DNA from: Candidatus Harrisonbacteria bacterium
GTDB taxonomy: Bacteria > Patescibacteriota > Minisyncoccia > UBA6257 > 02-FULL-45-10c
Assembly: GCA_016192685.1 (NCBI GenBank)
Contig: JACPTS010000001.1
Location: 33,412-97,411, forward strand
DNA length: 64,000 nt
Reading direction: 5' to 3'
The notes beneath the pieces were generated by a model that was not told the DNA's origin, did no database searches, and worked only from the letters and a program-made list of their open reading frames with translations. The position numbers and the translations under genes are program-made. Positions 29,166-58,591 of this stretch are shown piece by piece (the first letter of the stretch is position 1; each line of letters starts with the position of its first letter).

Positions 29166-29186
29166 ATAAATTTAAATAATTACTAA

Positions 29187-30695: not shown

Positions 30696-30698
30696 AAT

Positions 30699-31904: not shown

Positions 31905-31905
31905 A

Positions 31906-36265: not shown

Positions 36266-36304
<39 letters not shown>

Positions 36305-36701: not shown

Positions 36702-36733
<32 letters not shown>

Positions 36734-37195
36734 TCCCAGGCGGCCTACTTAACGCGTTAGCTTCGCCACCCCGAGGGTCGATACTCGAGATAGCCAGTAG
36801 GCATCGTTTAGGGCGTGGACTACAAGGGTATCTACAATTTTGTTGCTTCGCAAAACTTTTATACTCGCTATGCTATTCTCGCTCATACTGCTGCGCGCTG
36901 GACAAAACTAATTCGCTCATAGCGGAAATTTATCACCCTAGTCGCATTCGCTCCTGGGTATCCCGATAAATTTCCTATTCGCTCAAAGTTTTGTAACCAT
37001 CGCTCCGCAACATTCGCTCAAACAGCATAACTCGTTTAATAATAGTTTTGCGTGACACAGACATTTCTGCTGTGTTCTCTGTGTTGCCATAGAGTTCGGA
37101 CTATATCATTCTCGCGCTTTGAAAAACGAATATCAATCATCTTGATACTCGTAGATCAAAGAGCGAGAATCGGCGTATAGTCTCTGAGGGGTTAA

Positions 37196-37450
37196 TTATT
37201 TTCCTTTTAATTTTTTGAGGTGTTTTTTCACGGTACGATCAACTAATTTAAACTCCGGTTCTTCCAAAATATCATGCGTTGTATATCCATATCTCTTACG
37301 GTCATTGGTTTTCCAAATTGCTTCAATAGACGGCAATCCTCTGCTTTTCAGTTCTTCATTCACGGTTTCTAGAACAGCTTTTAATTTCTTATTTGATTTG
37401 CTTGTGCAAACGATTTCTACAAACCTAAATTTTGAGTCAGGCCTTGACAT
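37196..37450 (-). CDS. intron-encoded small basic protein (84 aa from MSRPDSK), function unknown (no LAGLIDADG/GIY-YIG motif seen)
   Basis: preceded by a perfect Shine-Dalgarno AAGGAGGTG 7 nt upstream of ATG; embedded in the rRNA insertion. Confidence 0.35.
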   Translation of the reverse strand: MSRPDSKFRFVEIVCTSKSNKKLKAVLETVNEELKSRGLPSIEAIWKTNDRKRYGYTTHDILEEPEFKLVDRTVKKHLKKLKGK

Positions 37451-37803
37451 CGTCCACCTCCTTTTTAAATTAACTTCCCTGCTGGTTGTCCGCACCGACG
37501 CGTTTTCACCAGCGATTTGTTTTTGAAATTTCAAAAACAAATCGCTGGTAGCGTCGGATACGCCGGATTTTCCAGCATATAGCCGATTTTACATTCCAGT
37601 GTTGCCACTGAAAGGGACCATATGCGTCTCCGGAAAATTCCGGAGTCACTTCTTTATACCCTAAAGAGAGTGAGATTATTTTTGCGAACCAATAAAATTA
37701 TATTTGCTTCACTTATTTATCTATTTATCGTGCGGCAACATTTATTTTAATTTCTTGCCGAACTGCCGAGTTATCATAGAGAAACTTTATACAATCTAAA
37801 CGA

Positions 37804-37952
37804 GCTCTGCCTGTGTTTCGTGCGGCAACTACGGAGCTCCGAAATGCTTGGCTTTCGCGAAGCGAAAATTTCGGAGCGAGGCGTAGACGCGTTTCGCCGC
37901 AGGAGCGAAACGACGCCGGTGCCGTCAGAAATACAGGCGGAGCGAGTAAAAC
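37804..37952 (+). repeat. structured repeat family 1, copy 2 (inside the rRNA insertion)
   Basis: core identical to copies at 20079..20221 and 63517..63667; own terminal inverted repeat c(t/c)gcctgt(g/a)tttc. Confidence 0.6.
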
Positions 37953-38170
37953 TCATAGACAATTCGGCGGAGCGGCATTTTCAAAATGAATGCCGATGCC
38001 GGTAGACAAATAAGTGAAGCAAATGAGTTCGTAAAAATAACCGAACGATCCTTTTTGCTCCCCACGCTTTCGTGCAATGAGAGTCAGTAATGCGCCAGCC
38101 AAATGCTTTCGCCTTTGGTATTCCCCACGATATCAACGGATTTCACCCCTACACCGTGAGTTCTATTGGC

Positions 38171-38459
38171 CTCTCGCACACTCTAGACAAGTCCCCTCTG
38201 TACAAATGTTTCCACTAAATTGAAATCATTGATTTTGTATCAAGTTCAAGGCGCGAGGAGGAAATCGTAGGGTTACCTACCTTTCCGACTCGCAACGCAG
38301 AAATTGATCAAAATCAAGATTCCCGAAGGGTAAGGAAATTTTTGTCAGCTTCTTCGTTAGTCGTCGCTAGTGTATCTAAAGATACACTTCGCTCCTCCTG
38401 CCTTGAATTTAACTCAAAATTTCCTTATCAATTAGTGAAAATATTTGTACAGAGGGGAC
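38171..38459 (-). other. ~290-nt intervening sequence (IVS) in 16S helix region ~E. coli 650, bounded by a perfect 33-bp inverted repeat
   Basis: gtcccctctgtacaaatgtttccactaaattga ... tcaattagtgaaaatatttgtacagaggggac; flanks align to 16S; core homologous to 61408..61678. Confidence 0.7.
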
Positions 38460-38989
38460 AGCAGTTTTTGCTGCAGCCTCGAAGTTGAGCCCCGAGATTT
38501 AACAGCAAACTTGCTGGTCCTCCTACGCACTCTTTACGCCCAATAAATCCGGATAACGCTTGGAGCCCTCGTATTACCGCGGCTGCTGGCACGAGGTTAG
38601 CAGCTCCTTATTCCTCTGGTACTATCAGCCTTGCGGCTTTCTCCCAGAGAAAAGCAGTTTACAATCCTTAGACCTTCATCCTGCACGCGGCGTCGCTCGA
38701 TCAGGCTTTCGCCCATTGTCGAATATTCTCGACTGCTGCCACCCGTAGGTGTACGAGCCGTGTCTCAGTCTCGTCGTTGGGGAACACCCTCTCAGGCCCC
38801 CTACTGGTCATAGCCTTGGTAGGCCATTACCCTACCAACTAGCTGATCAGACCTAGGCCGCTCCCAAAGCCCCTTGCGGGTTTTAATCCGAATGTTGCAT
38901 CGGATGCTATCGGGCATTACCCCGCCTTTCGGCGAGCTGTGCCCGTCTTTAGGGTACGTACCAAGGTGTTACTAACTCGTTCGCCGCTC

Positions 38990-39075
38990 GCCTTCGGCTC
39001 GGACAAATAACTTTTAACAAATAACTAATAACGAAATTGTTAATAGTTATAAGTTATTTAGTTATTAGTCCGAGC
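38990..39075 (-). other. expanded V1 helix of 16S (~60-nt AT-rich palindromic extension)
   Basis: ggactaataactaaataacttataactattaacaatttcgttattagttatttgttaaaagttatttgtccgag between conserved GCAAGTCG and GGCGAACG. Confidence 0.5.
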
Positions 39076-39448
39076 TAAAAGCTCGCACGACTTGCATGCC
39101 TTATCCACGCCGCCAGCGTTCATCCTGGACCAGGATCAAATCCTCTAAATAAAAGTCAGTTGCACAGAACCCTCGAACGAGTTCCTAGCAACTAACCTTC
39201 GTATTGGGACAACTAGAAAATTTTCTTTTTTACTTGTAATTTTACTAAATTACTAAATTTTATATATTTAGTTATCAAGCCAGCATGTATTATCTTTAAT
39301 TAGTAAAAATAATACACCTATCTTGCGGTTCGTGGTTTTCACCGAGTCAAACTCGGCTTCACACCAGCGGCAAGATAGATGCATTTAGAACCTATCTAGT
39401 AATCTATGAAATTTTTAAATAAAAACTTATTTCATTAAGGTAGTTCTA

Positions 39449-45139: not shown

Positions 45140-46525
45140 TTATTTTTTATTTCTATCAGAAATATCTTTTATAATTTTTCGTAAAGATTTTTCCGCGGCT
45201 TCCAATTCTTTCATAATTTTCCTCAACAAATCCCTTTCTTCATCAACCAGCATGCGGTTAAGAGTTAATTCTTCCAATCTTTCAAATTGCTTTTCAAAAG
45301 TTTCGCTTAAATCATCGAAAATTTTATCCGCCTGCTTTTCCGCTTCTAAAACTTTATGCTGGATTTTTCTCCTTGTTTGATTCCAAATTATAAACGCAAA
45401 AAGGATTAAAATTACAGCCATCGCTATTGCGATTCTTAAGTAATTCCAGTGCCGGGATTTTATAATCAAAAGATCGCTTACTTCAATTGAATTACCAGCC
45501 CTATCAAAAACTTTTACGATAATTTGATGCTCTCCGGTCGGCTGCGGCGGCAAGACATAAAAACCTTTATTCTGTTTTAATTTTTGGGCATTAAAGAAAT
45601 TTCCTTCGTCTATTTTTATTTCATAGCGGTCAACTCCGCAAAGAGCGTCCGTAGTTGAAAAACCGATGCGCGGCTCTGATTCAAAAGTTTCCCGGCCATC
45701 CGGAAATTGAATTATAAAAGATTCCGGCGGTACCGTATCAATTTGAACGCGATAATGCCCCGCCTTCCCCCAGCCTCGCGCGTTTCTAAACTGAACGTGA
45801 AAATACCATACGCCGTCCTGGACGCCGCCAAGCTCTCTTTCAAAAATCGGAGGTTCATAAACTAAAATCGGCTGGGTATCTGAAAACTGGTCATAAAGCA
45901 CCTTTACCGCAGTCACGTCTTTGGGAAGTTCCCAGATGAATTTCGGATTATTATTTGAATACCAAGAATTTTGATCCGGATGAGTTAAGGAAGTAATGGC
46001 TGGCTTGATTGGCAAAGCCAGCGGCGCCAGTGCCGGTTTTGACGGTAAAATAGGCGGAATAAATCTCCAATTGGCGCCTAAAGCGCCGCCAAAAATATTG
46101 GTTCCCAAACCATCGGCAAGAAGAATTCTCGCGCTGCTGAAATTTAAAGCTCCCTCCCCTGCCTGTTTTACGTGAAAAGTAACAGATAAAACTTCGCCTT
46201 GCGAGCCGGAAAAAGGAGTGGTGTTGCCGCCGGCAAAAGTAATAAGGCCCTTTGAATTATCAAAAGCCGGCTCTACCGGCCAAAGCGAAAATATGGAACC
46301 GGACCTCGCAATGGAAGCCACCCGCAAATAGGATGCCGGAAAATTAATGGTCGCTTCCGCCGCGTTAATGGCATTGCCTCCGGAATGGACATAAACCGAA
46401 GTTTTAATAGTTTGTCCCACGCTGAATTCGCCGCTAGCCGGCGATATGCTATAGGTGCCGCCGGCGGCCAAAACCATTTCAAAAATTAAAAGGAAGGATG
46501 TTGCTGAAAAAATCAATTTTTTCAT
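45140..46525 (-). CDS. cohesin-like domain surface protein with TM anchor and cytoplasmic coiled-coil tail
   Basis: signal peptide; cohesin-like INAAEATINFPASYLRVASI...GEVLSVTFHVKQAGEGALNF; TM VILILFAFII; 461 aa. Confidence 0.45.
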   Translation of the reverse strand: MKKLIFSATSFLLIFEMVLAAGGTYSISPASGEFSVGQTIKTSVYVHSGGNAINAAEATINFPASYLRVASIARSGSIFSLWPVEPAFDNSKGLITFAGGNTTPFSGSQGEVLSVTFHVKQAGEGALNFSSARILLADGLGTNIFGGALGANWRFIPPILPSKPALAPLALPIKPAITSLTHPDQNSWYSNNNPKFIWELPKDVTAVKVLYDQFSDTQPILVYEPPIFERELGGVQDGVWYFHVQFRNARGWGKAGHYRVQIDTVPPESFIIQFPDGRETFESEPRIGFSTTDALCGVDRYEIKIDEGNFFNAQKLKQNKGFYVLPPQPTGEHQIIVKVFDRAGNSIEVSDLLIIKSRHWNYLRIAIAMAVILILFAFIIWNQTRRKIQHKVLEAEKQADKIFDDLSETFEKQFERLEELTLNRMLVDEERDLLRKIMKELEAAEKSLRKIIKDISDRNKK

Positions 46526-47391
46526 AATTTGCGGACAATAAAAATTGCTGCCAAAATAACTAAGAAAATAATCAAGTAAAATAAGTATGGGCTTTCAATT
46601 TGCACCGCGGCTTCTCCAATGGTTTCATTACCGGCCTTATCTATTGCTTTTACTTGTATTAAAATATCGCCTTTTTGATTTTCCAATACATAAGGACTGG
46701 TAACAATTTTCCAGCCCCCCGCCTTCCCATCTGCTATTTCCCGCAATTCATAACGCTCCAACCCCGATTCGCGGTCTTCAGTTAAAAAAGACACGAAATA
46801 TTTTCCGTCAAAAGCCAACGGGGTCCGGCTGATAATGGGTGAAAAGGCGTCCGGCGGGGCAACATCTTTCGGAAGCGCGAAAATTTTTGGTTTTGTTCCA
46901 ACTGGCGCCAAATTTATTTTAAAAGTAAGAGCTTTCAAACTAAGCTCCGCTTCGTCTCCAGACCCATTATTTAAAAGCATTTTTGAAGTGGAAAGAAATT
47001 TTAAAGTCGCTTCGCCGATATTTTTTGCCCTAAAATATATTTTAGTAATAAGGCCGTTTTGACCCTGAAATCCTGGATTAGGCAGTCCTCCTGCCATAGA
47101 AATAGTTCCCAAGACATTGGAAAATGACGGTTCTTTCGGCCACAAACTTAAAATTGAACCGACTTTATCAAATGTGACAACCTCCAATAAATTAGCTGGG
47201 AAATTAAGGTCCGCTTGAACCGCGTTAATTGCTTCGCCGAAACTTCTAATTCGGATTTCCGCTGGGAAAACATCATTTTGGTAAATTGGCTGGCTGGGCA
47301 ACTGAATATAAAGCTCCGCGGCTTGAACTAAATTTAAACCAAAAGCGGCAGAGAAAAACATAATTAAAAATTGTATTTTCATATTTTTCAT
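46522..47391 (-). CDS. cohesin-like domain surface protein with C-terminal TM anchor
   Basis: signal peptide; INAVQADLNFPANLLEVVTF...GLITKIYFRAKNIGEATLKF; C-terminal TM. Confidence 0.45.
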   Translation of the reverse strand: MKNMKIQFLIMFFSAAFGLNLVQAAELYIQLPSQPIYQNDVFPAEIRIRSFGEAINAVQADLNFPANLLEVVTFDKVGSILSLWPKEPSFSNVLGTISMAGGLPNPGFQGQNGLITKIYFRAKNIGEATLKFLSTSKMLLNNGSGDEAELSLKALTFKINLAPVGTKPKIFALPKDVAPPDAFSPIISRTPLAFDGKYFVSFLTEDRESGLERYELREIADGKAGGWKIVTSPYVLENQKGDILIQVKAIDKAGNETIGEAAVQIESPYLFYLIIFLVILAAIFIVRKL

Positions 47392-47395
47392 GATT

Positions 47396-48241
47396 TTAAC
47401 CGGTCCACCAATAAAGCATTATGCTGAAATCTATTAAATCCACCTTTCCGTCTTTATTAAAATCTGTCGCCGGATTTTTTGGAATCCCCCAGTTAAATAA
47501 TAAAATACTAAAATCTGTAAGGTCCACGCGACCATCCGAATTTAAATTACCAACTCTTCTTGAAATTGCTGGCGATGGCACTATCGGAAAAAGCCCGCCA
47601 TCTCCTCCACCACCACCTCCTCCGCCAGATGGCGCTGGAGCCGGCGCGGGAGCAGGGGCCGGCGCGGTCGGAGCTGGTTTTTTCGCGGAAACCTCTATCG
47701 GCGCAATGATTGCCACCATAGCATCATCTTCGTCTAAAGTTGCGTTAGAACTATTTTTTGTAGTAACGCGAATTTTGTAAGACCCCGCGGAAGCTGAATT
47801 GGTAATTTGCTTATCGCCGGTTACTCCAAATACAGCGTTAGTTCCGATTCGCACAATAATGGAACTGCCTCCGGAAATCGCATCACTGTCGTTTAAGACA
47901 TAGGTCAACGAACCGCTGGTTCCGGAAACCGCCGTAAATCCAATGGCACTGCCGGCGCCTGACCCGGCGGACGCGGCAAGAGTTTTTTGAGAATTATTAA
48001 TGAGCAAATCAACATCAGTAAAATCAAGGCCAGGAGGAATATTGAAAGCTCCGGATTGCGGAGTAATAATTATTTTTCCGGAAACCGGAACAACTGTTAT
48101 GGTTGTAAATTTAATAGTGTGATTGGCGGCGATTCCCGGTCCGGAATCAAACAATGTATCACTGACTAAATTAAGAGTAGCGGCTTTTACCGCGGCAGTT
48201 AAAAATAATAACGCTATTATTAAAATTTTTTTAAGATTCAT
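47396..48241 (-). CDS. secreted protein with (PA)n/Gly linker and C-terminal dockerin-like duplicated Ca-binding repeat
   Basis: NSDGRVDLTDFSILLFNW and NKDGKVDLIDFSIMLYWW (DxDGxVDxxDxxxL x2); PAPTAPAPAPAPAPAPSGGGGGGGG linker; signal peptide. Confidence 0.55.
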   Translation of the reverse strand: MNLKKILIIALLFLTAAVKAATLNLVSDTLFDSGPGIAANHTIKFTTITVVPVSGKIIITPQSGAFNIPPGLDFTDVDLLINNSQKTLAASAGSGAGSAIGFTAVSGTSGSLTYVLNDSDAISGGSSIIVRIGTNAVFGVTGDKQITNSASAGSYKIRVTTKNSSNATLDEDDAMVAIIAPIEVSAKKPAPTAPAPAPAPAPAPSGGGGGGGGDGGLFPIVPSPAISRRVGNLNSDGRVDLTDFSILLFNWGIPKNPATDFNKDGKVDLIDFSIMLYWWTG

Positions 48242-48488
48242 CCTTTATTCTATGCCGATAATCCAAATAAAAGTTTAAAAGAACCAGCGCCAATATAATT
48301 CCCCCGCCGATAAAAATTTGCTTATCCATTTCCGCTTCTTTTTTAAGAAGCTTAGTTTCTTTTTCCTGCAGTTGCTTATTAAGCGTATTGATTGGGTTTG
48401 GGGGTATATCAGTATTTACCCCCACAGCGCTTGCCTTAGAAAATAAAATTAATAAACCGGCTAATATCAGCAATAAATAATTTTTCAT
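48231..48488 (-). CDS. small bitopic membrane protein (85 aa)
   Basis: signal peptide + C-terminal TM. Confidence 0.3.
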   Translation of the reverse strand: MKNYLLLILAGLLILFSKASAVGVNTDIPPNPINTLNKQLQEKETKLLKKEAEMDKQIFIGGGIILALVLLNFYLDYRHRIKDES

Positions 48489-49582
48489 GCAAAAAGTAAA
48501 AATAACAGCGTCAATAAAAGCAAAATCAGCATAAGAAGCGTTATTAAAGCGAACGCCGGCAATAAAGCGGATGATTTTTTATCGCGATTTACCGGAATGC
48601 TGCCGGTATTTTTAATAATTTGCCGAACTCTTTTTCTCACTTGAAAACGGATAAATAAGATTACGCCGATAATCATCGCCAGCAGGGCTCCAAAAACCGG
48701 CAAAATAATATTTAAAGGAACAATCCAAAAAGTTGTCTCATCAGAAAGGCTCTGCCGGCCTTCTTCGCCGTAAGTCAAGCTAAGAATAGCTTTATAATTC
48801 CCAAACAGCAATTTATCGCTTTCCCAAAGAATTCTAAATTCCCGGATAGTTTTAGGGAATACTGAAGCGGATTCTTCATTAACATTTAATGCCGCTTCTT
48901 GCCGGCCAAGAGGGTCAATGATTTCCAAAATACCGTGCGGCCTGACTAAAACATTCCCAAGATTTTCTATTTTGGCGGAAAAATTCACTTTCGGCCGGAT
49001 ATAAATTAATTTATCCAGAGAAAAACCTCTTAACTGCGCTTCTTCAAAAATTTCTCCGGAAACTCTAAAATTAATAATGGTGCCAACTTGATAACCAATG
49101 CCGATGCCGGTTGTTTCCGGACGCTTAGGCGCGAGAGCCACAAAAATTCCTCCGAAATGGCCTCCGGGAGGAGCATTGGGCGGAACAACAATCGCAAAAG
49201 GAATTTCTTTGGTCTGGCCGGCGCCAAGATTTATAGATTTATCAGTTATTTTAATCCAGGAACTTATTTCAAAACCAGTCGGTTCGCCTTCTACGGCAAA
49301 TATCGGGGATCCTTGCTCGGAAAGGGACTTGATATCACGGGTAATTACGTAAAAAGTTTTATTCTCCGAACTTAAATTAGTTACTTTAATTTTAGAATTA
49401 AAAGTTTGGCCCGGGTCAATTCTCTGTTCAATTATTGCCGGCTGGATTTTTACGCCCGAAACCTCTTGCGCCTTTACAAATGAAAATTCTGGCAGGTGAA
49501 AACCTGCCAGAATTAACGCCGCCAGAAAGAAAATCTTAGAAGGTCGGCGTAGCAATATAATTAAGCGCTTGAGTATAATCAT
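48485..49582 (-). CDS. cell-surface protein with signal peptide and C-terminal TM anchor (DUF916-like architecture)
   Basis: 365 aa; WIVPLNIILPVFGALLAMIIGVILFI anchor followed by basic tail. Confidence 0.4.
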   Translation of the reverse strand: MIILKRLIILLRRPSKIFFLAALILAGFHLPEFSFVKAQEVSGVKIQPAIIEQRIDPGQTFNSKIKVTNLSSENKTFYVITRDIKSLSEQGSPIFAVEGEPTGFEISSWIKITDKSINLGAGQTKEIPFAIVVPPNAPPGGHFGGIFVALAPKRPETTGIGIGYQVGTIINFRVSGEIFEEAQLRGFSLDKLIYIRPKVNFSAKIENLGNVLVRPHGILEIIDPLGRQEAALNVNEESASVFPKTIREFRILWESDKLLFGNYKAILSLTYGEEGRQSLSDETTFWIVPLNIILPVFGALLAMIIGVILFIRFQVRKRVRQIIKNTGSIPVNRDKKSSALLPAFALITLLMLILLLLTLLFLLFA

Positions 49583-50705
49583 CGGCTGCTTCTTGTAAGG
49601 TGGAAATTTCTATCTTAAAGCCAATCTTAGTTCTGCCTTTATCAATAGTAGTGCCGTTAGCCGGTCCGGTATGAGCGAATATCTCAATCGGGGCGGACTG
49701 GCTGCCGATTCCGCTGTATAAAGCGGTGCCGAAAGTATCCCCGGCGGTTAAAGTGCTGTCCTCGCTGGTAATACCTTGCCAGCCCCAAGTGTTCTCATCA
49801 TCAATATCAGCTGTCGGCGAAGACCAGGCAACCGCGGTGGAAGTGGCGGTTTGCTGGAAATTATCAATATCCGAACCGTCACCGCTGGTCAAATTCTGGT
49901 CTTTCCAGATAGTTACGGAGAAGCCGTTTTTGGCATTAGTGCTGACGGTCAAATCTTGACGCGCCCGTTTAGCAGTATCAATAGTTAATTCTCCCCAGGG
50001 AATAGCGGTAGCGGTGGTAGTGACATCAGTTGTTCCACCTTCGCCGTTAGCTGTCGTTGTTGCCGAAGCAACACCAGCCACAGTAAAGGTGAAGTTGGTT
50101 GCGACCGTGGCAGTTACCGTAACATCAGGAACAATGGCAACTCGGGTACTCGCGGAATCAGCAGCCGGGGCAGTAATGCTGATAACATAAGAACCGGAAC
50201 TAGGAGGATTTACCAATTGGCTGTCGCCGGTCCCGCCAATTGTGGCATTAGTGCCGATTTTTACCGTAATCGGGGCGCTGGCCGCGACTGCCGCCGTGCC
50301 ATTGCAATGGGTAAAAGTGAAAACATTGCTAGTAGAAGTGGAGGTAATTTCAAAACCGGCGGTAGCGCCTGTTCCCGGACAAGCTCCAGCGGCAAAAAGA
50401 TTGAGGTCAGTGGTGGAAGATGCTATATCATAATCAGTCGCGTCAGTTGTGGAAAAAACCGGGGTGCTGGTCCCCTGAAATTGGTCAGCAAAATCAATTA
50501 CTATCGTTGAGCTCGCGGTAATCGGACTTTTAAGAGTAAATTTAATCGTGTGATTGGCTTTGACTGCCGGCTCAGAATCGCTTAAAGTATCAGAAACTGA
50601 CGTTAATTTGGCCGCCAAAGCGTAATTAACCAATAAAACTAAAGTTAAAGTTACTAAGATAAACAGCCAGTTTTTAGAATATCCCGATACCTTAAACTTA
50701 AACAT
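49536..50705 (-). CDS. secreted Thr/Ser-rich surface protein with WxL-like C-terminal tail
   Basis: N-terminal VSDTLSDSEPAVKANHTIKFT shared with 47396..48241; C-terminal ...DDYTQALNYIATPTF similar to the 53288..54610 C-terminus. Confidence 0.4.
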   Translation of the reverse strand: MFKFKVSGYSKNWLFILVTLTLVLLVNYALAAKLTSVSDTLSDSEPAVKANHTIKFTLKSPITASSTIVIDFADQFQGTSTPVFSTTDATDYDIASSTTDLNLFAAGACPGTGATAGFEITSTSTSNVFTFTHCNGTAAVAASAPITVKIGTNATIGGTGDSQLVNPPSSGSYVISITAPAADSASTRVAIVPDVTVTATVATNFTFTVAGVASATTTANGEGGTTDVTTTATAIPWGELTIDTAKRARQDLTVSTNAKNGFSVTIWKDQNLTSGDGSDIDNFQQTATSTAVAWSSPTADIDDENTWGWQGITSEDSTLTAGDTFGTALYSGIGSQSAPIEIFAHTGPANGTTIDKGRTKIGFKIEISTLQEAADDYTQALNYIATPTF

Positions 50706-50764
50706 ACTTTTATTATAGCAGGTTAAGTTTTAGTCCTAAGAGACGGCTGTGGATAACTTTTTTA

Positions 50765-52390
50765 TTAAGGAATTGCTCCCAACGATTTTAATGCCAATTT
50801 AAAACCATCAAAACTCGCGCTTATTACCAAATATTCATTAAAGAGACCATAATTAAAAGCTGAACCGGGACGGGAACCAATGGCATATCGAGTTTTTATG
50901 CCCAAAACCGATCCGTCTTTAAATTCGCCGAGGGTTTCCGGCGAAATGTAAAATCTTGCGGCATAATTTTCTAAAATCGGCGCGATAACCGGAGCCAAAA
51001 CCTGGGAATCTTTGATTTTCGCGACATAACCGGGCCAAGAGCCGTTGGCGTCATAATATCGGAAAGCGGTAAAATCATCATTAAAAGTTTGGCTCAAAAA
51101 ATCTTTATCAAAAACCGGCAAAAACCGCCGGAATAATTCCGGTAAAGACATTTGCCCGCCGTCTTCTTTTAAAATTTCCACTTCATTAAAACGATTGTCA
51201 GTTTCCGACGCGGAAAGGAAATAAGTTTGGTGGATTATTGAAGCGGTTTGTTTTAGCGCCAATTCCGGAGCGCCAACAAATAATGATTTGCGCGATTCTA
51301 CCGCGTATCTTACTCCTGCGCCGGCGCTGACCGACAATAAGCCAATTACCATTATTATCATTAATGGATTCCAAGCGGAAATCACGGGAACTGGCTGATA
51401 ATTTTTCACCGGAGGCAAATCGGAAACAGGAAATTCTCCTTCCATAACTTTATGGACATAAGCCCTAATGGTTTTTCCGGCAAAAAATAAGAAAAGCGGC
51501 AATAAAAATAAAAGGCTTATAATTCCAAAAATAAAATTAATCGGCATTATCCAAAAATAAGTTTCCTTAACGATATTTTGAGCCGGATTCCCAAAAGTTA
51601 AAACTGCCGCCGCTTTGTATCTTCCCATTCCGCTTCCGGATTTTTCCCTCTCCCAATTAAAAATAAATTCACGGCTTTTACCCGGTAAAACCGCTAACGC
51701 TTCAGCCGATAAAATAATATCCCCTTTTTCTTCGCCTTGATAATTAAAAATTTTAATTTTACCCGATGGATTTAAATTTACATTGCCGGTATTTTCAAAA
51801 TTAAGCGAAAATTTGACTTTCAACTCACGGTAAAAATTATTTTCCGCGATAAAAGATTTAATGGCGCCGCCAACCCGTTTTTCTCCGCTGACCCGCACCG
51901 ATAAAATTGAAGAAATAAATCCGGCGGATTTTAATTCTTGAGTTTTTCCGCTTAACGGCTGGGTGCCGATAAGAATCGCGGCCGCGTGGCTACCCGGCGG
52001 AGCGTCAGCCGGCAATTGCAAAGAAAATGGCAGAAATACGCTTTGCTTCCCCAATATCGTTACTGCGTTATCCTTGAATTTTACCCATTTAGCCAGCGAA
52101 TGTCCGTAAATTTCCGAATCCTCATTTAAAATCGGAACCGATTTATCGCTTAAATTAACGGCTGAAACATAAACCGTCAGGTCAGTTGAATTATTGTTGA
52201 AGATTTTTAACCCGCTGTTCCAATTTTCTCCGGGACTAAGATTAATTTCCAATAAAGAAGGCGTAACCGTAAAAGCAATCGATTCGCTTCCAAGAGTTAA
52301 AGAGACGGAAAAAATTCCAAGCAAAGCTGCGAAAATAACTATTTCATTTATTTTAAAAATAAATAGATTGTTAAAATTGTCATGGCGCAT
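50765..52390 (-). CDS. surface/membrane protein (541 aa) with extracellular domain, central TM and C-terminal domain
   Basis: signal peptide; WIMPINFIFGIISLLFLLPLFLFFAG TM. Confidence 0.4.
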   Translation of the reverse strand: MRHDNFNNLFIFKINEIVIFAALLGIFSVSLTLGSESIAFTVTPSLLEINLSPGENWNSGLKIFNNNSTDLTVYVSAVNLSDKSVPILNEDSEIYGHSLAKWVKFKDNAVTILGKQSVFLPFSLQLPADAPPGSHAAAILIGTQPLSGKTQELKSAGFISSILSVRVSGEKRVGGAIKSFIAENNFYRELKVKFSLNFENTGNVNLNPSGKIKIFNYQGEEKGDIILSAEALAVLPGKSREFIFNWEREKSGSGMGRYKAAAVLTFGNPAQNIVKETYFWIMPINFIFGIISLLFLLPLFLFFAGKTIRAYVHKVMEGEFPVSDLPPVKNYQPVPVISAWNPLMIIMVIGLLSVSAGAGVRYAVESRKSLFVGAPELALKQTASIIHQTYFLSASETDNRFNEVEILKEDGGQMSLPELFRRFLPVFDKDFLSQTFNDDFTAFRYYDANGSWPGYVAKIKDSQVLAPVIAPILENYAARFYISPETLGEFKDGSVLGIKTRYAIGSRPGSAFNYGLFNEYLVISASFDGFKLALKSLGAIP

Positions 52391-53355
52391 ATAATTAAAA
52401 TTAATCCCGCCAAGATCGGCCGGGAAATTACCCAGAAAAAAGCCGTATCTTGAACCACTTGTCCGTTTTCGGATTTCAAAGATAAAATCGCTTTATATCT
52501 TCCGAAATCTTTATTAAATTCCGACAAATTTGCCAGAGCGCCAGCCAAGTCTGACTTGGCGCCGCCGAAATTCCTTGATTCCCGATGGGGAGAAACCGCC
52601 AACTGACCGCTGAATTTTTCCGCGTTTATTTCGCTAATCGGCACCAATCCCGCTTCTTCGCCTCTCCGATTAAAAATCATCAGCTCTCCCTTGAGTTTTA
52701 TCGGCTTAACTCCGCTATTTTCCAATTCATAAGTAAAAGAAACCGGAAATCCCAATGAAAAAGTTTTATCGGCCGCGAACTTTTTTAAACGCAAAAATTC
52801 ATCATTCTTTTCCGCGATTTCCACATTGACCAAAACCTCCGGCCCGGCCATTCTTTTTTCCGCTTCTATTCTATCCGATCCTTCATAAAAAGCAATGCTG
52901 GCGTGATAAATTCCCGGCACTGCTCTTGGCCCCGCTTTAATCAAAAAATCAATGCTTTTTTTCTCTCCCGGCAGAAGCTGAATCACTCCCCTGTTAATTT
53001 CAATCCAATTTGCTAGTGATTTGGTGAGGTCCGCCTGCGCCGGGCCGTAAAATTCCTGCTCTCCTTCTTTTGTGTCTAAATTATGCACGGTGGCATAAAT
53101 ATTTGTTTTATAATTTGCATCGTTAGTTAAAATTATGGTTTCCTCAAAAATTTCTCTTGGATTTCCTTTCTCGTCTATAATTGCCGGTTCAATTTTTAAA
53201 TAGCCGGCATGAATATTGGCAAAAACTAAAAACAATCCGGCAACAATAAGAACCAATCTTAAATTAATTTTTAATGGATTAAACATTTTAAAAAACCGGA
53301 ACAATAATATACCCGACACTGCTTTGATAATCCTCCGGCGGCTGTTCCGGCCCAA
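52348..53355 (-). CDS. cell-surface protein with C-terminal TM anchor (paralogous architecture to 48485..49582)
   Basis: 335 aa; WVISRPILAGLILIICAMTILTIYLFLK. Confidence 0.4.
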   Translation of the reverse strand: MGRNSRRRIIKAVSGILLFRFFKMFNPLKINLRLVLIVAGLFLVFANIHAGYLKIEPAIIDEKGNPREIFEETIILTNDANYKTNIYATVHNLDTKEGEQEFYGPAQADLTKSLANWIEINRGVIQLLPGEKKSIDFLIKAGPRAVPGIYHASIAFYEGSDRIEAEKRMAGPEVLVNVEIAEKNDEFLRLKKFAADKTFSLGFPVSFTYELENSGVKPIKLKGELMIFNRRGEEAGLVPISEINAEKFSGQLAVSPHRESRNFGGAKSDLAGALANLSEFNKDFGRYKAILSLKSENGQVVQDTAFFWVISRPILAGLILIICAMTILTIYLFLK

Positions 53356-54610
53356 TCTGGGCTTTAAAAATTATATCCACTGATTCATTGGCTACCGGGG
53401 TAGGGCTAAAAGCCGTTTCTTTTGGGGAATTTTCCAGCTTGGCATAAGTATCATTGGCGGCAAAACGGCCGGCATTTCCAGAAAGGGTGTCGTCTCCGGA
53501 ATGATAACCATAACATCCCATATCCAATACCGGACAAGCAGCCGACCAATTTAAAGGAGTTTCATTAGTGCTATTAATCGGCGCGATTTCCGAACCACCG
53601 TCTCCTAATAATCCTTGTCTTTGAAATATAAAAATCCGGTAGCCATCCGTCCCATTAGTGGTAACGGTTAATCTTTGCGCCACTTCCGTCTCTAATCCTG
53701 GATTTAATGAACTAAAAGAAATATTTAACGGCGTGGTTGCCGCGTCGGTAATTATGCCTTCAGTCGCAGTTCCGGAAGGCAAACCGCTGATTGAAAAAGT
53801 TAGTTTTGCCGCTTCTGTTGCCAGACTGGGATAAGATGCGCCGGGCTTAAGTACAACCGGTTTATTATTTCCAAGATCAAAAACCCGGAAAAAATACACG
53901 GCATTGGCCCTTGCTCCGGCATGTTTAACGGTAAATTCATATTCCGAAGCCGCATTCCTGATATATATAAAGGTAGAAGTACTGGACCCAAATTCATTAT
54001 GAGTGCCGCAGCCATTTCCTATTCCGCTAAGACAAGAATCGGCATCAGATAAAGTTTTATTTTGAATTAAAGCATTATCTGATCCGGCGCCGTCCGCGTA
54101 ACACCAAAGCGAATTATCCGCGCAATCCGACGTTTCCACCACATCCTGGACATCGCGGGAAAAATCCGAATACTCGGAAAACTGAAGTCGGAATTTAGTA
54201 TTTTTATTTCCTATGCCGCCTAATTCCTTAATAGTTAAACGGAGTTTTATAATATTTTGATTTACGATATTAATAGGCGCGGCATTTTCATTCGCGAGCG
54301 CGACACCGGGAGTTTCATTGGTTTCATCGTCATACCAGCGCCAGTTTTGGCTGGCCGGAGTAAAATCGTTGAAATATAAAAATCCGGATAATACTACGAA
54401 ATTTGTGCTGGTTGATTCTCCGAGAGCGTTTTGGCCGCCGACAATTCCCTGCTGAAAACTGCTGGAGGTGGCAACTCCGCCAAATACGTCAATAACCGGA
54501 TCCCGAAAAATAAAATTCGGGCTGGTAAAATCCGCGGCAAAAACTAAAGCCGCGGAAAATAAAATCGCCGGTAAAATTAGATTAATTAGAATTTTGAGTC
54601 GTAGTTGCAT
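53288..54610 (-). CDS. secreted surface protein with WxL-like C-terminal tail
   Basis: signal peptide; C-terminal ...DYQSSVGYIIVPVF. Confidence 0.4.
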   Translation of the reverse strand: MQLRLKILINLILPAILFSAALVFAADFTSPNFIFRDPVIDVFGGVATSSSFQQGIVGGQNALGESTSTNFVVLSGFLYFNDFTPASQNWRWYDDETNETPGVALANENAAPINIVNQNIIKLRLTIKELGGIGNKNTKFRLQFSEYSDFSRDVQDVVETSDCADNSLWCYADGAGSDNALIQNKTLSDADSCLSGIGNGCGTHNEFGSSTSTFIYIRNAASEYEFTVKHAGARANAVYFFRVFDLGNNKPVVLKPGASYPSLATEAAKLTFSISGLPSGTATEGIITDAATTPLNISFSSLNPGLETEVAQRLTVTTNGTDGYRIFIFQRQGLLGDGGSEIAPINSTNETPLNWSAACPVLDMGCYGYHSGDDTLSGNAGRFAANDTYAKLENSPKETAFSPTPVANESVDIIFKAQIGPEQPPEDYQSSVGYIIVPVF

Positions 54611-56969
54611 TTTTATTAATTACAAAATTCGTTGTTGTTGAATTACTGACTGAAATATTTTCGCAGGTTCCCAAAACTTTTTTCCATTCTCCATTTTCCA
54701 GCCAAGTGCAATAAAATTCATTGGTAGCTTGGTCACGCAATTGAATTTTTTCTGAAATATCCAAATTCTGGATTCGCGCTGATTTGATAATCGCTTTTTC
54801 CGCGATAAATTCCTGAAACTTAGCAATTCCATTTTCAATAAATAAACCGAGTGAATTTAATGTCTGTCTTATTATGTCGCCTAGACCGCTGTCTGGCACT
54901 TCCGCGGTTTGAATTTCGCTAATAGGATTATCTTCGCTTGTCGTTGCCATTTCTCCGCTTGTTCCCTCCGGCGGGTCGTCAATCCAAACCTTAATAGATT
55001 CTACGTCCAGATTTTTTACCGCATCGGCGGTTGTTATTAAAGCGTTACCGACTGAAAATCCTAAATCGGCAGTAGGAATATTTAAACTGATTGTAGCAAC
55101 TAAAACGCCGCCAATAAAAAAGCGGGTGTTAACGCTGCCATTTATTTCAACGCGAAGTTCCTGAAAATTCGCGGTAGAAATCGCAACACCGGTATCAACA
55201 ACTGAACCAACTTCTGAACCGCCGGCGCGGTTTACCGCTATCCAATTTGACGAAGCAGGTGTGGCGCGAAAATATACTCCGTTGGTATCGGCCGCTATAT
55301 CGCCGTTTAACGCCCTGACAGCAAACCCCGCTTCAATTCGGTGATTGGTCAAAGTTAGCGGCATTACCCTTGCTTCCATTACCGGATTATTATCCCTGTT
55401 CATCGGCAACGGGCCGCCAGACCCCAAAATCGCCCCCTCCCCAACCGCTAAACTTCCGGCAGTGCTTGCCCGGAGCCGAATCGCGGAACTACCGGCAACT
55501 TTTGCTATAACTGCTCCGTCAGCGTCTTCGTCAAAAACTAATCCGCAAATATCGGCTGTATCAGCGACTATAACGGCTAATGGAGCGCAGGTTGCCAGCC
55601 ATTCTCTTTGATAACCCCGCCAGGAACTGTTAATCCGGCCATAAACATAAAGCTGGTCCTCCTTAGTTGGCCCGCCGACTGTTACTCTGGAAAAATCAAG
55701 ATTGCCGATTCCGCTTTGCGTAATTGAAAAAAGAGTGGCGGTTGAAGAACCAACCACAAAAGCCGGCCCGTTTATTCCGTCAGGATTCACCGAAAGAAGC
55801 CCCAGAGGGGAAGTGGTGCCAATGCCCACGTTGCCATTATTAAAAATAATCTTATCATCTTGGAACTCGGCAGCTGTTACTTCCCCGGATGGACCGGCAG
55901 TGCCGGTGTTAGCCCGAATTTGAACAACGCCATTTGATGTCCTGTTGGCCAATGCTACAATGTCACTTCCCGGGAAGATAAGGCCGAACCTTCTCTTGCT
56001 GGCTGAATCAAGATATTGTATTCCCTCGCTTGCGCCGCCAGCAGTGCCAATAAAGGATATGATAGACCCTGCCCCGCCAATACCGACTTTCGTCCCCGGA
56101 TCCGCCGTCCCGATGCCGATGTCGCCGCTTCCCTGCTGAACCACAAACTGCGACGCTCCAACCGTAAACCCCTGGCCGCTGGCGATAGTAGAAGTTCCGG
56201 AAGCGCCGATTAAAGATAAATTACCGGTAGCCGTGATATCCGCCACCGAAGTGATATTTCCCAAAAACAAAGCATTTCCATGCACGGAAAGCAATTGAGA
56301 AGGAGAAGTGGTGCCAATACCGACAAATCCGCTTAAAGGATTTAAAAGCAGATTTCCGCTAAGAGCATTTCCCTGAATCGTTAACGAATTTGAGGAAGTG
56401 GCGTTAATCTGCGGCGTCAATGCTCCTAAAAACAAATTTCCGCCGGTTAAAACCGGAATCTGATTTCCGCTTGCCGACGGCGCGGCATGAAAACCATCCA
56501 AAGTATCGGAATTAATTGAATAGCCGGACGAAACAACGCGCTGCCGTGGAGATAAATTTTCAAAAACTTCCGCCCCGTCGCCCGGCGCGCAAGTCACGCC
56601 GACTTTTTGGGCAACTTCCGTATTTACGTATATTTCATCCTGCGATTGGAAATCAAAATCTAAAATATCTCCTCCGCTTAAAGTATCGCCTATTCCGGCA
56701 TCAAAAACGCCATTTTTAACTAAAACTGTCATTGTTGATGGAGCGCCAGCCGGCCAAAGTTTATTATCCGGAGCCCCGACTGCCGCGTCATCATAAAAAG
56801 AAAATTTAAAACAAAATTCTGTTCCGGATTCGCCCAGCAAAATCCCAGAAGCGTCCAGCAATCTTCCTTGGTAATTTAAAATTCTGGGGACGCCGGCTGC
56901 GGCAAAAATTTTAGTACCGGCAATTAATCCCAGCGCCACCATTAAAATTTTTAGAAACGTCTTCTTCAT
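54582..56969 (-). CDS. large secreted fibre-like protein (795 aa) with repeated G(N/D)(V/I)GIGT(T/A)xP motifs
   Basis: signal peptide; GFVGIGTTSPSQLL, GDIGIGTADPGTKV, GNVGIGTTSPLGLL; same motif as in paralogues 27714..28316 / 28489..28989. Confidence 0.5.
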   Translation of the reverse strand: MKKTFLKILMVALGLIAGTKIFAAAGVPRILNYQGRLLDASGILLGESGTEFCFKFSFYDDAAVGAPDNKLWPAGAPSTMTVLVKNGVFDAGIGDTLSGGDILDFDFQSQDEIYVNTEVAQKVGVTCAPGDGAEVFENLSPRQRVVSSGYSINSDTLDGFHAAPSASGNQIPVLTGGNLFLGALTPQINATSSNSLTIQGNALSGNLLLNPLSGFVGIGTTSPSQLLSVHGNALFLGNITSVADITATGNLSLIGASGTSTIASGQGFTVGASQFVVQQGSGDIGIGTADPGTKVGIGGAGSIISFIGTAGGASEGIQYLDSASKRRFGLIFPGSDIVALANRTSNGVVQIRANTGTAGPSGEVTAAEFQDDKIIFNNGNVGIGTTSPLGLLSVNPDGINGPAFVVGSSTATLFSITQSGIGNLDFSRVTVGGPTKEDQLYVYGRINSSWRGYQREWLATCAPLAVIVADTADICGLVFDEDADGAVIAKVAGSSAIRLRASTAGSLAVGEGAILGSGGPLPMNRDNNPVMEARVMPLTLTNHRIEAGFAVRALNGDIAADTNGVYFRATPASSNWIAVNRAGGSEVGSVVDTGVAISTANFQELRVEINGSVNTRFFIGGVLVATISLNIPTADLGFSVGNALITTADAVKNLDVESIKVWIDDPPEGTSGEMATTSEDNPISEIQTAEVPDSGLGDIIRQTLNSLGLFIENGIAKFQEFIAEKAIIKSARIQNLDISEKIQLRDQATNEFYCTWLENGEWKKVLGTCENISVSNSTTTNFVINKNATTTQNSN

Positions 56970-57331: not shown

Positions 57332-58591
57332 TTAAATTTCAAAATATCCCTGAAGCAAATACTCTTTAGAAAATTTTTCCAGTTCTTCGCGATTGAAATA
57401 TTCCGTAAAAATTTTGTTCCAAAGCGCTTCCTGATGGTGATAAAGATATTTAATAAGCTCTTTTTGCTTCACCAAGCTCATAACCGTATCCACTAAATCA
57501 AAACTAACCAATATGTCGTTCCCGACCTCATCCTTAAAATAATCGCCTACCCAGCCTAAATTATGCCAAAACTCCAATTCCTTATTTAATTGGGGATATA
57601 AGCCGCTTAATTTAATTAAATCTTCTTCGGCTTTTAACCAATGCAGGGCTTCCGGATTGATCCGGGGGACAAAAAGCCGCCAATCATTTTCATCATCTTT
57701 GGCAAGGTAACGCTGGACCACCAAAAAAAGCGCCCGTTCATTTTCCGGCAGATGCCGCTCCATCACATCGCCGCGCAAAAGAGAGATTAAATTTTCCGAA
57801 AAAGTTTCCGGCACTTCCGCGATTTTCTTAAAAATATCGGAATAAAACGGCACCTCGTGCAAGTAATGCGCCACCAAACTCATCATCCGCAAAAGTTCTC
57901 CGGATATTCCAAGCGAAATCGGAATAACAAAGACCACTCCCAATTCCTTAAGGTGGCTGATATTATGCCACTTTTTCATCACGAATTTCTTCGTTATCTC
58001 ATTCCATTTTTCACTCAAAGCATGGACTACAATCTTCCTTTTTTCAAAATCATCCGGCGTCAAATCTTCATATTGCTTAAAAAACACGTCATTTAACCAC
58101 TCATTTCCCTCAAGAAAACGGAGAGCGCTATAAACTTCCAAAAGATTTTCTTTCGCAAGCATCTCATCAATAGAGCTATATCCTAAAAATTCCATCACTT
58201 TTTTCGGCGGTTCTTTTTTTAATAATTGCTTCGCGACTTCCTGTTTTAAAAAGAAACCGTGATTTATTTCCGCAACTTTTTTTATCGTTTCCAGAATATT
58301 ACGGCAGTCCTTTTGGCTATTGCAGACTCTGCCGCCAAGGGCATTAAAAATTAAATTATCATCGGCTTCTATCTTAGAAATTAAGGCGTCATATACCTCC
58401 TTAGCGGTGGCAGCGCGGGAAATTCCGAGAGTCAACAAAACTTCTTTAACCTTAGTTTCGTTTTCTTCGGCTATTTTTTCAAAAATGCCGCTTTTTCCGG
58501 TTACATGATTTAATCGGTCTTCAATTTTATAAAGAGCGTTTTTGTCTGCCCTCAATATTTTTGCCAATTTATCGGTTGCCAGTCTTTCCAT
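57332..58591 (-). CDS. hypothetical protein (419 aa)
   Basis: long clean ORF, no motif recognised. Confidence 0.45.
   Translation of the reverse strand: MERLATDKLAKILRADKNALYKIEDRLNHVTGKSGIFEKIAEENETKVKEVLLTLGISRAATAKEVYDALISKIEADDNLIFNALGGRVCNSQKDCRNILETIKKVAEINHGFFLKQEVAKQLLKKEPPKKVMEFLGYSSIDEMLAKENLLEVYSALRFLEGNEWLNDVFFKQYEDLTPDDFEKRKIVVHALSEKWNEITKKFVMKKWHNISHLKELGVVFVIPISLGISGELLRMMSLVAHYLHEVPFYSDIFKKIAEVPETFSENLISLLRGDVMERHLPENERALFLVVQRYLAKDDENDWRLFVPRINPEALHWLKAEEDLIKLSGLYPQLNKELEFWHNLGWVGDYFKDEVGNDILVSFDLVDTVMSLVKQKELIKYLYHHQEALWNKIFTEYFNREELEKFSKEYLLQGYFEI

Follow-up and report, generated by a model that had tools for sequence, protein, structure and literature searches.

Ten minus-strand genes at 45140-56969 of the window, by which is meant the whole 64,000-nucleotide stretch of Candidatus Harrisonbacteria DNA analyzed here (contig JACPTS010000001.1, positions 33,412 to 97,411), probably encode an usher-less, chaperone-assisted strand-exchange fibre. 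The fibre would be a distant relative of the Pam pilus, and one of its subunits, g8, would dock through a dockerin onto cohesins anchored in the membrane. We put the probability of this reading at about 0.6. It draws on domain identities, on paralogy among the ten proteins, and on a gene order conserved across related loci, in two of which the dockerin is exchanged for a membrane helix. Within the candidate phyla radiation (CPR), Candidatus Harrisonbacteria is placed by NCBI in the Parcubacteria group of Patescibacteria, and a protein identical to g5 is on record from a genome of this name. Bacteria of the CPR are thought to live attached to other cells by means that are mostly unknown, and attachment to a host cell or surface is the likely role of the fibre.

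Electron cryomicroscopy has shown the Pam pilus of Candidatus Mycosynbacter amalyticus as filaments built from two pilins of two domains each, PamA and PamB, whose structures are listed as 25PZ and 25QA (Troman et al., bioRxiv 2026, doi 10.64898/2026.03.03.709456). In these filaments a linker strand inserts into the open, C-terminal immunoglobulin-like (Ig-like) domain of the neighbouring subunit. The same preprint describes PamC and PamD, which are PapD/FimC-like chaperones with a C-terminal membrane helix. It adds to the operon a tip subunit (PamT), a proposed membrane-anchored terminator (PamR; RbmA-like, with an N-terminal strand, two FnIII domains and a membrane helix) and a conserved neighbour gene of tail-fibre type. 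The NCBIfam models for Pam proteins that are used below derive from that preprint.

The operon and its proteins

The genes are numbered g1 to g10 in the order of transcription. Lengths are in amino acids (aa), and the basis for each assignment is given in brackets; ORF denotes an open reading frame.

54582-56969, minus strand: g1, 795 aa, tail-fibre-like secreted protein (ORF and motifs)
53288-54610, minus strand: g2, 440 aa, tip-type subunit, likely (C-half match to g5)
52348-53355, minus strand: g3, 335 aa, WxLIP/PapD-like, putative membrane-anchored chaperone (paralogy, weak Pfam match)
50765-52390, minus strand: g4, 541 aa, WxLIP/PapD-like with an extra C-terminal domain (paralogy, domain profile)
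49536-50705, minus strand: g5, 389 aa, candidate major pilin (AlphaFold2, NCBIfam on the family)
49485-49514, minus strand: hairpin, likely transcription attenuator (perfect inverted repeat and locus comparison)
48485-49582, minus strand: g6, 365 aa, WxLIP/PapD-like, putative membrane-anchored chaperone (AlphaFold2, Foldseek)
48231-48488, minus strand: g7, 85 aa, small protein with an N-terminal signal or helix and a C-terminal membrane helix (ORF, hydropathy)
47396-48241, minus strand: g8, 281 aa, pilin N-domain and dockerin, proposed terminal subunit or adaptor (BLASTP, Pfam, phmmer)
46522-47391, minus strand: g9, 289 aa, cohesin, Ig-like domain and membrane helix, proposed socket (paralogy to g10)
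45140-46525, minus strand: g10, 461 aa, cohesin, Big_13, membrane helix and charged tail (Pfam)

Neighbouring genes overlap (g1/g2 by 29 nucleotides, g6/g7 by 4, g7/g8 by 11 and g9/g10 by 4) or follow each other closely, the widest intergenic gap being 59 nucleotides, and for this reason g1 to g10 look like one operon. Kyte-Doolittle windows place a hydrophobic, signal-peptide-like segment at the N-terminus of all ten proteins and C-terminal membrane helices in g3, g4, g6, g7, g9 and g10. A first-pass annotation, made by a model from the letters alone, had listed ten co-oriented genes for signal-peptide proteins, and every one of them is an ORF at its given place on the minus strand with such an N-terminal segment. 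All-against-all BLASTP of the ten proteins found paralogy far beyond chance in four sets of relatives: g3, g4 and g6; g9 and g10; the N-terminal half of g5 with g8; and the C-terminal half of g5 with g2.

Judged by their sequences, the cohesin modules of g9 and g10 and the dockerin of g8 are real. The g10 protein scores 25.8 bits against Pfam Cohesin (PF00963), above the gathering cut-off of 24.1, with an expectation value (E) of 1.3e-5. Its parts are a cohesin (residues 23-147), a middle domain, an Ig-like Big_13 domain (256-352, E 1.2e-3) and a membrane helix (363-381). The g9 protein consists of a cohesin (24-147), an Ig-like domain (173-257) and a C-terminal membrane helix (268-286). There is no direct Pfam Cohesin match for g9; it aligns with g10 over the first ~140 residues at 36% identity (BLASTP, E 1.5e-21) and again in its second domain (1e-5), and a profile of the cohesin domain recovers it at E 4.5e-35. 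Against PDB sequences, a profile of the domain found 11 at E<=1, all of them cellulosomal cohesins. In NCBIfam, g9 also matches an OmpL47-type domain (E 9e-5). After its membrane helix g10 continues for about 80 residues (~382-461; bases 45140-45434) as a charged, helix-like tail that is predicted to be cytoplasmic and matches no family.

The dockerin of g8 occupies residues 225-281 (bases 47399-47569), where the repeats NSDGRVDLTDFSILLFNW and NKDGKVDLIDFSIMLYWW are present. The sequence itself shows two canonical calcium loops, NxNxDGxVDxxD and DxNxDGxVDxxD. They form tandem F-hand loops, each followed by a helix (NLNSDGRVDLTD-FSILLFNW and DFNKDGKVDLID-FSIMLYWW), and calcium binding is predicted. 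The Dockerin_1 score of 22.0 bits lies just under the Pfam cut-off of 22.9, and a phmmer search of the PDB gave the NagH dockerin of Clostridium perfringens (2jnk/2ozn, E 6.4e-4), with CelS dockerins as weaker matches. Ahead of the dockerin, g8 has a pilin-type N-domain (residues 20-179) that matches the N-terminal half of g5 (BLASTP, E 1e-17 to 1e-19). A linker follows that starts with AMVAIIAPIEVSA from residue 174, and then a (PA)n/Gly8 spacer (188-216); g8 has no acceptor C-domain.

The same modules recur in a wider set. Pfam was run on 72 module-bearing proteins, namely g8, g9, g10 and 69 from related loci, 46 of them cohesin-type and 38 dockerin-type. Pfam Cohesin was found in 19 of the 46 (g9 and g10 included; best E 7e-11), and Dockerin_1 (PF00404) in 37 of the 38 (g8 included) at E<=1e-3, with a best value of 2.3e-9. 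The other domains seen in the 72 were Ig-like (Big_13, Big_6) and DUF4215, and the carriers of dockerins had Ig-like, DUF4215 or pilin domains only. The first-pass annotation had read two genes as encoding cohesin-like domains with C-terminal membrane anchors, and a third as having a duplicated dockerin repeat behind a (PA)n/poly-Gly linker. The first claim holds, with g10 above the Pfam cut-off, g9 its paralogue, and the domain profile finding cohesins alone in the PDB. So does the second, since repeat and linker are both there and the NagH dockerin is matched. Profile searches had been proposed as the check, and they returned Cohesin above its cut-off (g10) and Dockerin_1 just under (g8).

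The likely major pilin is g5. It is composed of an N-terminal beta-sandwich (residues 31-192), a linker (190-205; bases 50091-50138) and a Pam-pilin-like C-domain (199-389). Its AlphaFold2 model, with a mean predicted local distance difference test (pLDDT) of 88.9, has two beta-sandwich domains, and residues 192-204 between them are confidently placed and unpaired in the monomer. Among 50 homologues the linker is conserved at every second residue (V195, V197, A199, V201, T203, F205), and the most conserved segment of the protein is the C-terminal strand. The same pattern of alternating linker residues and a conserved C-terminal strand is reported for PamA and PamB (doi 10.64898/2026.03.03.709456). 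C-domains of the g5/g2 family match the NCBIfam model CPR_Pam_pilin_C (NF058581) in 15 of 50, 28 of 50 and 10 of 10 proteins in three sets, with scores of 17-31 bits, a best E of 1e-8, and alignments that often run over positions 3-148 of 148. A single PamT match excepted, no other NCBIfam model was found in these proteins at E<=0.01. This supports the view that the g5 and g2 C-domains are remote relatives of the Pam pilin C-domain, by a homology that is consistent and does not amount to membership of the family.

A tip-type role is likely for g2. Its C-terminal Pam-pilin-like domain (residues 264-440; bases 53291-53821) is related to the C-terminal half of g5 (BLASTP, E 1e-10 to 1e-13; 1e-53 with an iterated domain profile), its N-terminal part is variable, and it has no pilin N-domain. 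NCBIfam gives a weak match to CPR_pilus_PamT (E 9.5e-4, residues 6-78). In other loci the tip position is taken by giants of 850-1840 aa that end in a region matching residues 83-440 of g2 (L024 80-5581, L041 99-5621, L049 3879-7424, L026 17534-21001, L060 3-2564), one of which matches BNR repeat families. These proteins suggest variable adhesin heads on a constant pilus-joining domain.

Two readings of the ends of g5 and g2 were rejected. The tails had been called WxL-like, and this did not survive: Pfam WxL is absent from g2 and g5 (E<=1) and from 50 C-domain relatives (E<=0.01), the alignment of C-domains has no conserved WxL motif, and CPR_Pam_pilin_C is the sole family that they match. 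A sortase-assembled pilus was rejected as well, since the two proteins end in ...YIATPTF and ...YIIVPVF with neither an LPXTG motif nor a membrane tail; no sortase match was found in the cluster with Pfam or NCBIfam, and the likeness in fold between g5 and pilins of that class is of a generic, Ig-like sort. The annotation had also described two Thr/Ser-rich proteins that share both an N-terminus and a C-terminal tail. Serine and threonine make up 27% of g5, which is strongly so, and 17-18% of g2 and g8, which are not. Both shared ends are real and belong to different pairs, VSDTL..NHTIKFT being common to g5 and g8, and the tail Y..YI..P.F to g5 and g2.

The first gene, g1, encodes the 795-aa fibre protein with repeat motifs that had been noted earlier, and three copies of G-x-(V/I)-GIGT are found in it (residues 214, 282 and 379). 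It has no match in Pfam, NCBIfam or PHROGs (PHROGs also gave none for g2, g4 and g7). Its homologues are CPR proteins, and it is called tail-fibre-like solely because distant ones among them carry Peptidase_S74 (PF13884) or are named 'tail fiber domain-containing protein'. Single-sequence searches of g1, g2, g5 and g10 against PDB sequences gave nothing meaningful.

The paralogues g3, g4 and g6 (BLASTP, E 1e-13 to 1e-40; g3-g6 1.5e-19, g4-g6 6e-40) appear to be the same kind of protein as the WxLIP of Firmicutes, which is defined by DUF916, DUF3324 and a membrane helix (Hassan et al. 2023, PMC10599100). Modelled with AlphaFold2 (mean pLDDT 87.0), g6 has two beta-sandwiches and C-terminal helices, two of them membrane helices, with a low-confidence loop (157-162) between two strands. 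With Foldseek its best PDB match is the WxLIP of Enterococcus faecium (9i1y/9i25, E 5e-13), and next come the chaperones CfaA, Caf1M, CsuC, FimC and PapD (E 1e-10 to 1e-7). The WxLIP architecture, two Ig-like domains of WxLIP fold and a C-terminal membrane helix, is thus seen in the g6 model, and the helices are present in g3, g4 and g6. Pfam scores are below the gathering cut-offs for g6 (WxLIP_PGBD 23.5 against 27.3 bits, HBD 12.7 against 28.9), WxLIP_PGBD is weak in g3 (15.2 bits; membrane helix 313-331), and the WxLIP domain of g4 has no Pfam WxLIP match. That domain (residues 36-284) is found by a domain profile at E 1e-73, and membrane helices follow at 286-304 and 342-360. Some homologues carry PF06030, and NCBI names them DUF916. 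In NCBIfam the chaperone family matches no Pam-related model and gives scattered weak matches such as choice-of-anchor T. The earlier description of three DUF916-like anchor proteins is borne out by the structural match, with Pfam scores that remain under threshold.

Beyond its second helix g4 has an extra domain of about 180 aa (~361-541; bases 50765-51365) with no Pfam or PHROG match. Both this extension and the charged tail of g10 could link the assembly to other components of the cell.

In an AlphaFold2 prediction for the Firmicute proteins, a hairpin of WxLIP becomes a strand that completes the beta-sandwich of WxL (PMC10599100). This is the logic of donor-strand complementation.

Related loci in other genomes

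A scan of species-representative genomes found 296 stretches that encode relatives of g5, and 80 loci were examined (L003-L082), all from Parcubacteria/Paceibacteria-type CPR genomes. The operon of the window is itself present on independent metagenome contigs, and two such copies (L001, L002) bring the loci counted to 82. In a profile search the g5 family comprised 2,636 cluster representatives at E<=1e-3.

Gene order falls into two types. In type A, that of the window, a large protein (in some loci) is followed by a tip protein ending in a C-domain, two chaperone-like genes and the pilin, and then by a chaperone-like gene, a g7-like gene, a protein with a pilin N-domain and a dockerin, and a membrane-anchored cohesin. 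In type B a chaperone-like gene precedes a secreted dockerin protein with DUF4215 cysteine-rich or Big_6 domains, the pilin, two membrane cohesins and a membrane protein of about 250 aa having both cohesin and dockerin. Type B is represented by L008-L014, L016-L021 and many others (e.g., L011 6807-15356), and in many genomes the two types are found on one contig (e.g., L025/L027, L016/L029, L018/L057). Relatives of g7, for which Pfam, NCBIfam and PHROGs give no family, keep the same position between the chaperone gene and the g8-like gene in 33 related loci, or 35 with the window copies. Relatives of g1 stand upstream of the tip gene in only three related loci (L003, L004, L054), with a weak, partial one in L076.

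A cohesin gene accompanies the pilin gene in 60 of the 82 loci. Precomputed Pfam matches place Dockerin_1 and Cohesin genes downstream of a distant class of pilins with a different N-domain (L083) as well. The modular, non-covalent surface assembly that the first-pass annotation pictured is in keeping with these data, which show a conserved association of the cohesin and dockerin genes with the rest of the set across the 82 loci.

Fusions of a pilin N-domain to a dockerin were found in 25 related loci besides g8. All 26 proteins keep the N-terminal motif, the pilin N-domain, and its last strand with the start of the linker, (A/F)(M/L)(I/V)A(I/V)V-x-x-V-x-V, and have no acceptor C-domain. Among fusion loci with enough downstream sequence, a gene for a membrane cohesin lies close by in 20 of 23, and the window is a further such case. 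Two other loci (L054, 12552-13460; L076, 11127-12665) encode a g8-like protein with a membrane helix at its C-terminus where g8 has a dockerin. Both are without a cohesin gene and continue at once with housekeeping genes (by appearance a peptidyl-prolyl isomerase and LexA-like and RarA-like proteins). The association of dockerin with cohesin, and of helix with no cohesin, gives a one-sided Fisher p of ~0.03 (calculated by hand), for small numbers and loci that are not phylogenetically independent. The swap of dockerin for helix, together with the loss of the cohesin gene, suggests that a dockerin and a membrane cohesin together fulfil the function of a membrane helix, which is to hold the subunit at the membrane.

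A further feature shared among the loci is a hairpin behind the pilin gene. That of the window (49485-49514, minus strand) has a perfect stem of 13 base pairs and a loop of 4 nucleotides, and lies 22 nucleotides past the g5 stop codon within the region coding for the g6 signal peptide. The cluster contains no other close inverted repeat that is perfect. Hairpins of <= -15 kcal/mol occur within 110 nucleotides after the pilin stop codon in 88% of the 82 loci, as against 22% at random positions. They are terminator-like, with a T run behind most of them, and in L004 the stem shows a compensatory change. The hairpin after g5 is likely a transcription attenuator, which probably keeps pilin transcripts above those of the downstream genes, and the presence of such hairpins after 88% of pilin genes fits a major subunit that is made in excess.

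Proposed assembly and competing explanations

The course of assembly that we infer from these parts, with its chaperone action, polymerisation and cohesin-dockerin binding, would begin with export of all ten proteins by Sec, to which their N-terminal hydrophobic segments point. The membrane-tethered g3, g4 and g6 may then each donate a strand that caps the incomplete C-domains of g2 and g5, as fold similarity and the models for WxLIP and Pam suggest. With its acceptor domain, variable N-terminal part and lack of a pilin N-domain, g2 would nucleate the distal end. The g5 protein would polymerise behind it, the linker of each incoming subunit filling the groove in the C-domain of the previous one, a step modelled on the remote homology to Pam pilins. 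The last to be added would be g8, which has the start of a donor linker and no acceptor site and could end the fibre. Its dockerin would plug into the cohesin of g9 and/or g10 in a calcium-dependent manner and so fasten the base of the fibre to the membrane, a proposal that stems from domain architecture and comparative genomics. This split anchor, made of g8 with g9 or g10, would replace PamR. Cohesin strand 1 stands at the very N-terminus of mature g9 and g10, with no spare strand ahead of it for donation; an adaptor is therefore favoured over direct insertion into a pilin as proposed for PamR.

Several observations weigh against such a fibre. The CPR_Pam_pilin_C scores, the best of them ~31 bits, are all under the curated cut-off of 55 bits, and neither g5 nor g2 itself has a match to that model at E<=1. 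Fold searches with g5 returned Ig-like adhesins and pilins of a generic kind, from a PDB set that did not hold PamA or PamB. The likeness of g2 to PamT is a single weak match that includes the signal peptide. In the linkers of g8-like proteins only the first part (xVxV and then G, S or A) is conserved and many continue as Gly-Pro, so that strand donation by these proteins is uncertain. Three fusion loci (L005, L056, L082) have no nearby cohesin gene. Finally, type B loci have pilin, chaperone, dockerin proteins and cohesin anchors with no fusion of pilin N-domain to dockerin, and the adaptor model therefore cannot be the whole story.

The serious rival is a static surface complex of the WxL type, without a polymer, in which g3, g4 and g6 permanently hold g2 and g5 and the cohesin-dockerin pair is an extra tether. 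We consider it unlikely. The closest structural matches of g6 are WxLIP entries, one of which is the WxLIP-WxL complex, and the published WxL model has WxLIP as a lasting partner and not as a transient chaperone (PMC10599100). Three WxLIP-like genes are a surplus over only two proteins with acceptor domains, and a filament has not yet been seen in the lineage. A static complex is, however, hard to square with the lack of a Pfam WxL domain in g2, g5 and their 50 relatives, and with C-domains that resemble the Pam pilin C-domain, which polymerises. The linker, conserved at alternate residues and unpaired in the monomer, would have no obvious role in a 1:1 complex, and the hairpin after the pilin gene fits a subunit that is needed in large excess.

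A less likely explanation still is that g8, g9 and g10 form a separate surface-display module that merely lies beside a pilus operon, dockerin proteins being shown on cohesins independently of any fibre. The type B dockerin proteins, which have DUF4215 cysteine-rich repeats and Big_6 and no pilin domain, would suit such a module, as would the small protein that unites a cohesin with a dockerin and suggests an independent display network, and the three fusion loci without a nearby cohesin. It is opposed by the physical fusion of the pilin N-domain and linker to the dockerin in g8 and 25 relatives, and by the company of cohesin and pilin genes in 60 of 82 loci (two of the 82 being window copies) and also in the distant pilin class. 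The coincidence of the dockerin-to-helix swap with loss of the cohesin gene, and the overlap of window genes by 4-11 nucleotides, point the same way. The presence of cohesin and dockerin modules might also call to mind a cellulosome-like complex that organizes polysaccharide-degrading enzymes on the surface, which was how the first-pass annotation had labelled the modules. This is very improbable, and the likeness stops at the two module types. Pfam and NCBIfam found neither glycoside hydrolases nor carbohydrate-binding or other enzyme domains in the ten proteins, and Pfam found none among the 72 cohesin and dockerin proteins, where dockerins have no companions other than Ig-like, DUF4215 or pilin domains. 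Every cohesin protein combines one cohesin with a membrane helix, there is no multi-cohesin scaffoldin, and a cellulosome was rejected on this domain content.

The strand-exchange fibre with a docked base leads to a wider proposal, which we offer tentatively and rate at somewhat short of an even chance. It holds that in Parcubacteria a strand-exchange pilus is fixed to the membrane by a detachable cohesin-dockerin anchor, with the dockerin on a terminal pilin-like subunit and single-cohesin membrane proteins as sockets, and that Pam and WxL/WxLIP are two branches of one ancient, usher-less pathway in which membrane-tethered chaperones build surface fibres in single-membrane bacteria.

Surroundings of the operon and comparison with known systems

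Directly upstream of the operon is an ORF of 419 aa (57332-58591, minus strand) with no Pfam match, which has the same position on the metagenome contig L001. The sole promoter candidate upstream of g1 is at 57172-57143; the promoter scan was uninformative in this AT-rich DNA, with 43 sites where 27±6 were expected. Elsewhere in the window a set of type IV pilus genes (23666-33654, minus strand) includes a PilM-like gene (23666-25171), a PilB-type ATPase gene (31906-33654) and an ORF of 401 aa (30699-31904), and beside them are genes for an fn3 protein (29187-30695) and an NHL-repeat beta-propeller protein (25619-27445). The genome thus seems to encode two unrelated fibre systems. The 16S rRNA gene (36101-39151, minus strand) is split, Rfam matches covering 36101-36924 and 37940-39151, and the insertion of about 1 kilobase (kb) holds an ORF of 114 aa (37196-37540, minus strand). 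Insertions in 16S genes are common in the CPR. A 23S rRNA gene was not found in the window. A low-GC island (7909-18611; GC content 0.34-0.35 at 12-16 kb) adjoins tRNA-Asn (7909-7981) and has genes for a serine recombinase (7942-9603, minus strand), a RadC/Dam-methyltransferase fusion (12164-13984) and an AlwI-type restriction enzyme (14884-16410). The island probably represents a mobile element, now integrated, with a restriction-modification system.

Pili of this kind were already described in the 2026 Pam preprint, and proteins like the chaperones here go by the name of WxLIP. The features that appear to be new are the coupling of a fibre system to cohesin and dockerin, including the fusion of pilin to dockerin, and the occurrence of the system in Parcubacteria. 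A literature search for cohesin or dockerin in the CPR gave nothing relevant, and the Pam preprint names no cohesin, dockerin, WxL, DUF916 or Parcubacteria (doi 10.64898/2026.03.03.709456). The first-pass annotation had supposed the cluster to be undescribed in CPR organisms. This seems right for the cohesin-dockerin part, which is absent from that preprint, and went too far for the rest, because a CPR Pam pilus with two-domain pilins had been described. The 296 genome-scan matches and 2,636 protein clusters suggest that a related fibre system is widespread in Parcubacteria/Paceibacteria. For that system the locus offers a parts list and an anchoring mechanism that would give cohesin and dockerin a task not described for them so far. 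The chaperones of Pam pili and the WxLIP proteins of Firmicutes seem to be of one kind, a link that itself appears new, and the connection of CPR chaperones to DUF916/WxLIP could unify two systems so far studied separately. The preprint remarks that Pam pili detach easily (doi 10.64898/2026.03.03.709456); a non-covalent, calcium-dependent anchor would, as a speculation, offer an explanation.

Compared with the Pam system, which is found mainly in Saccharimonadia and Microgenomatia (doi 10.64898/2026.03.03.709456), the window operon has predicted Sec export, a two-domain architecture of the candidate pilin, a likely acceptor-only tip, no usher and a tail-fibre-like gene in common (the Pam side being taken from the preprint and the NCBIfam model). 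PapD/FimC-like chaperones with a C-terminal membrane helix are likewise shared, this being the form of g3, g4 and g6. The window C-domains, in contrast, score below threshold and belong to a separate, very large subfamily (2,636 cluster representatives) of Parcubacteria/Paceibacteria. There are three chaperone paralogues in place of two, and ATP synthase genes are not adjacent to the operon. Its end is formed by the pilin-N-domain/dockerin protein and the membrane cohesins, with no recognized counterpart of PamR; g9 and g10 each combine two beta-sandwich domains with a membrane helix, but the first of these domains is a cohesin and no spare N-terminal strand is present.

With the WxL clusters of Lactobacillales and Bacillales the operon shares, in g3, g4 and g6, a signal peptide, two Ig-like domains and a C-terminal membrane helix. 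We know of no described WxL cluster that includes cohesin-dockerin genes. The operon also resembles these clusters in having a small and a large partner with a common C-terminal domain that would need a donated strand, as in the published WxL model (PMC10599100). It differs in lacking a WxL domain or motif, in its sub-threshold Pfam WxLIP scores, and in coming from a CPR bacterium and not a Firmicute.

The chaperone-usher pili (Pap, Fim, CFA/I, Caf1, Csu) have the same chaperone fold, and strand complementation and exchange and an acceptor-only tip adhesin are proposed likenesses. In that class PapH is a terminator able to donate and not to accept, as is proposed for g8, and an attenuator hairpin follows the major subunit gene in pap and fim, as is likely behind g5. 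The window differs in that its chaperone-like proteins are tethered to the membrane, its pilins consist of two domains, and strand donation is ascribed to an internal linker instead of an extension at the N-terminus. No usher-like protein was found among the ten with Pfam or NCBIfam; to our knowledge, CPR cells lack an outer membrane. The cohesin-dockerin pairs of cellulosomes and of NagH (2ozn), lastly, share with the window the duplicated F-hand of the dockerin, predicted here to bind calcium, and the single beta-sandwich cohesin. The carriers differ, being here a pilin-like protein and membrane proteins with one cohesin each, and the proposed task is the anchoring of a fibre and not the assembly of enzymes.

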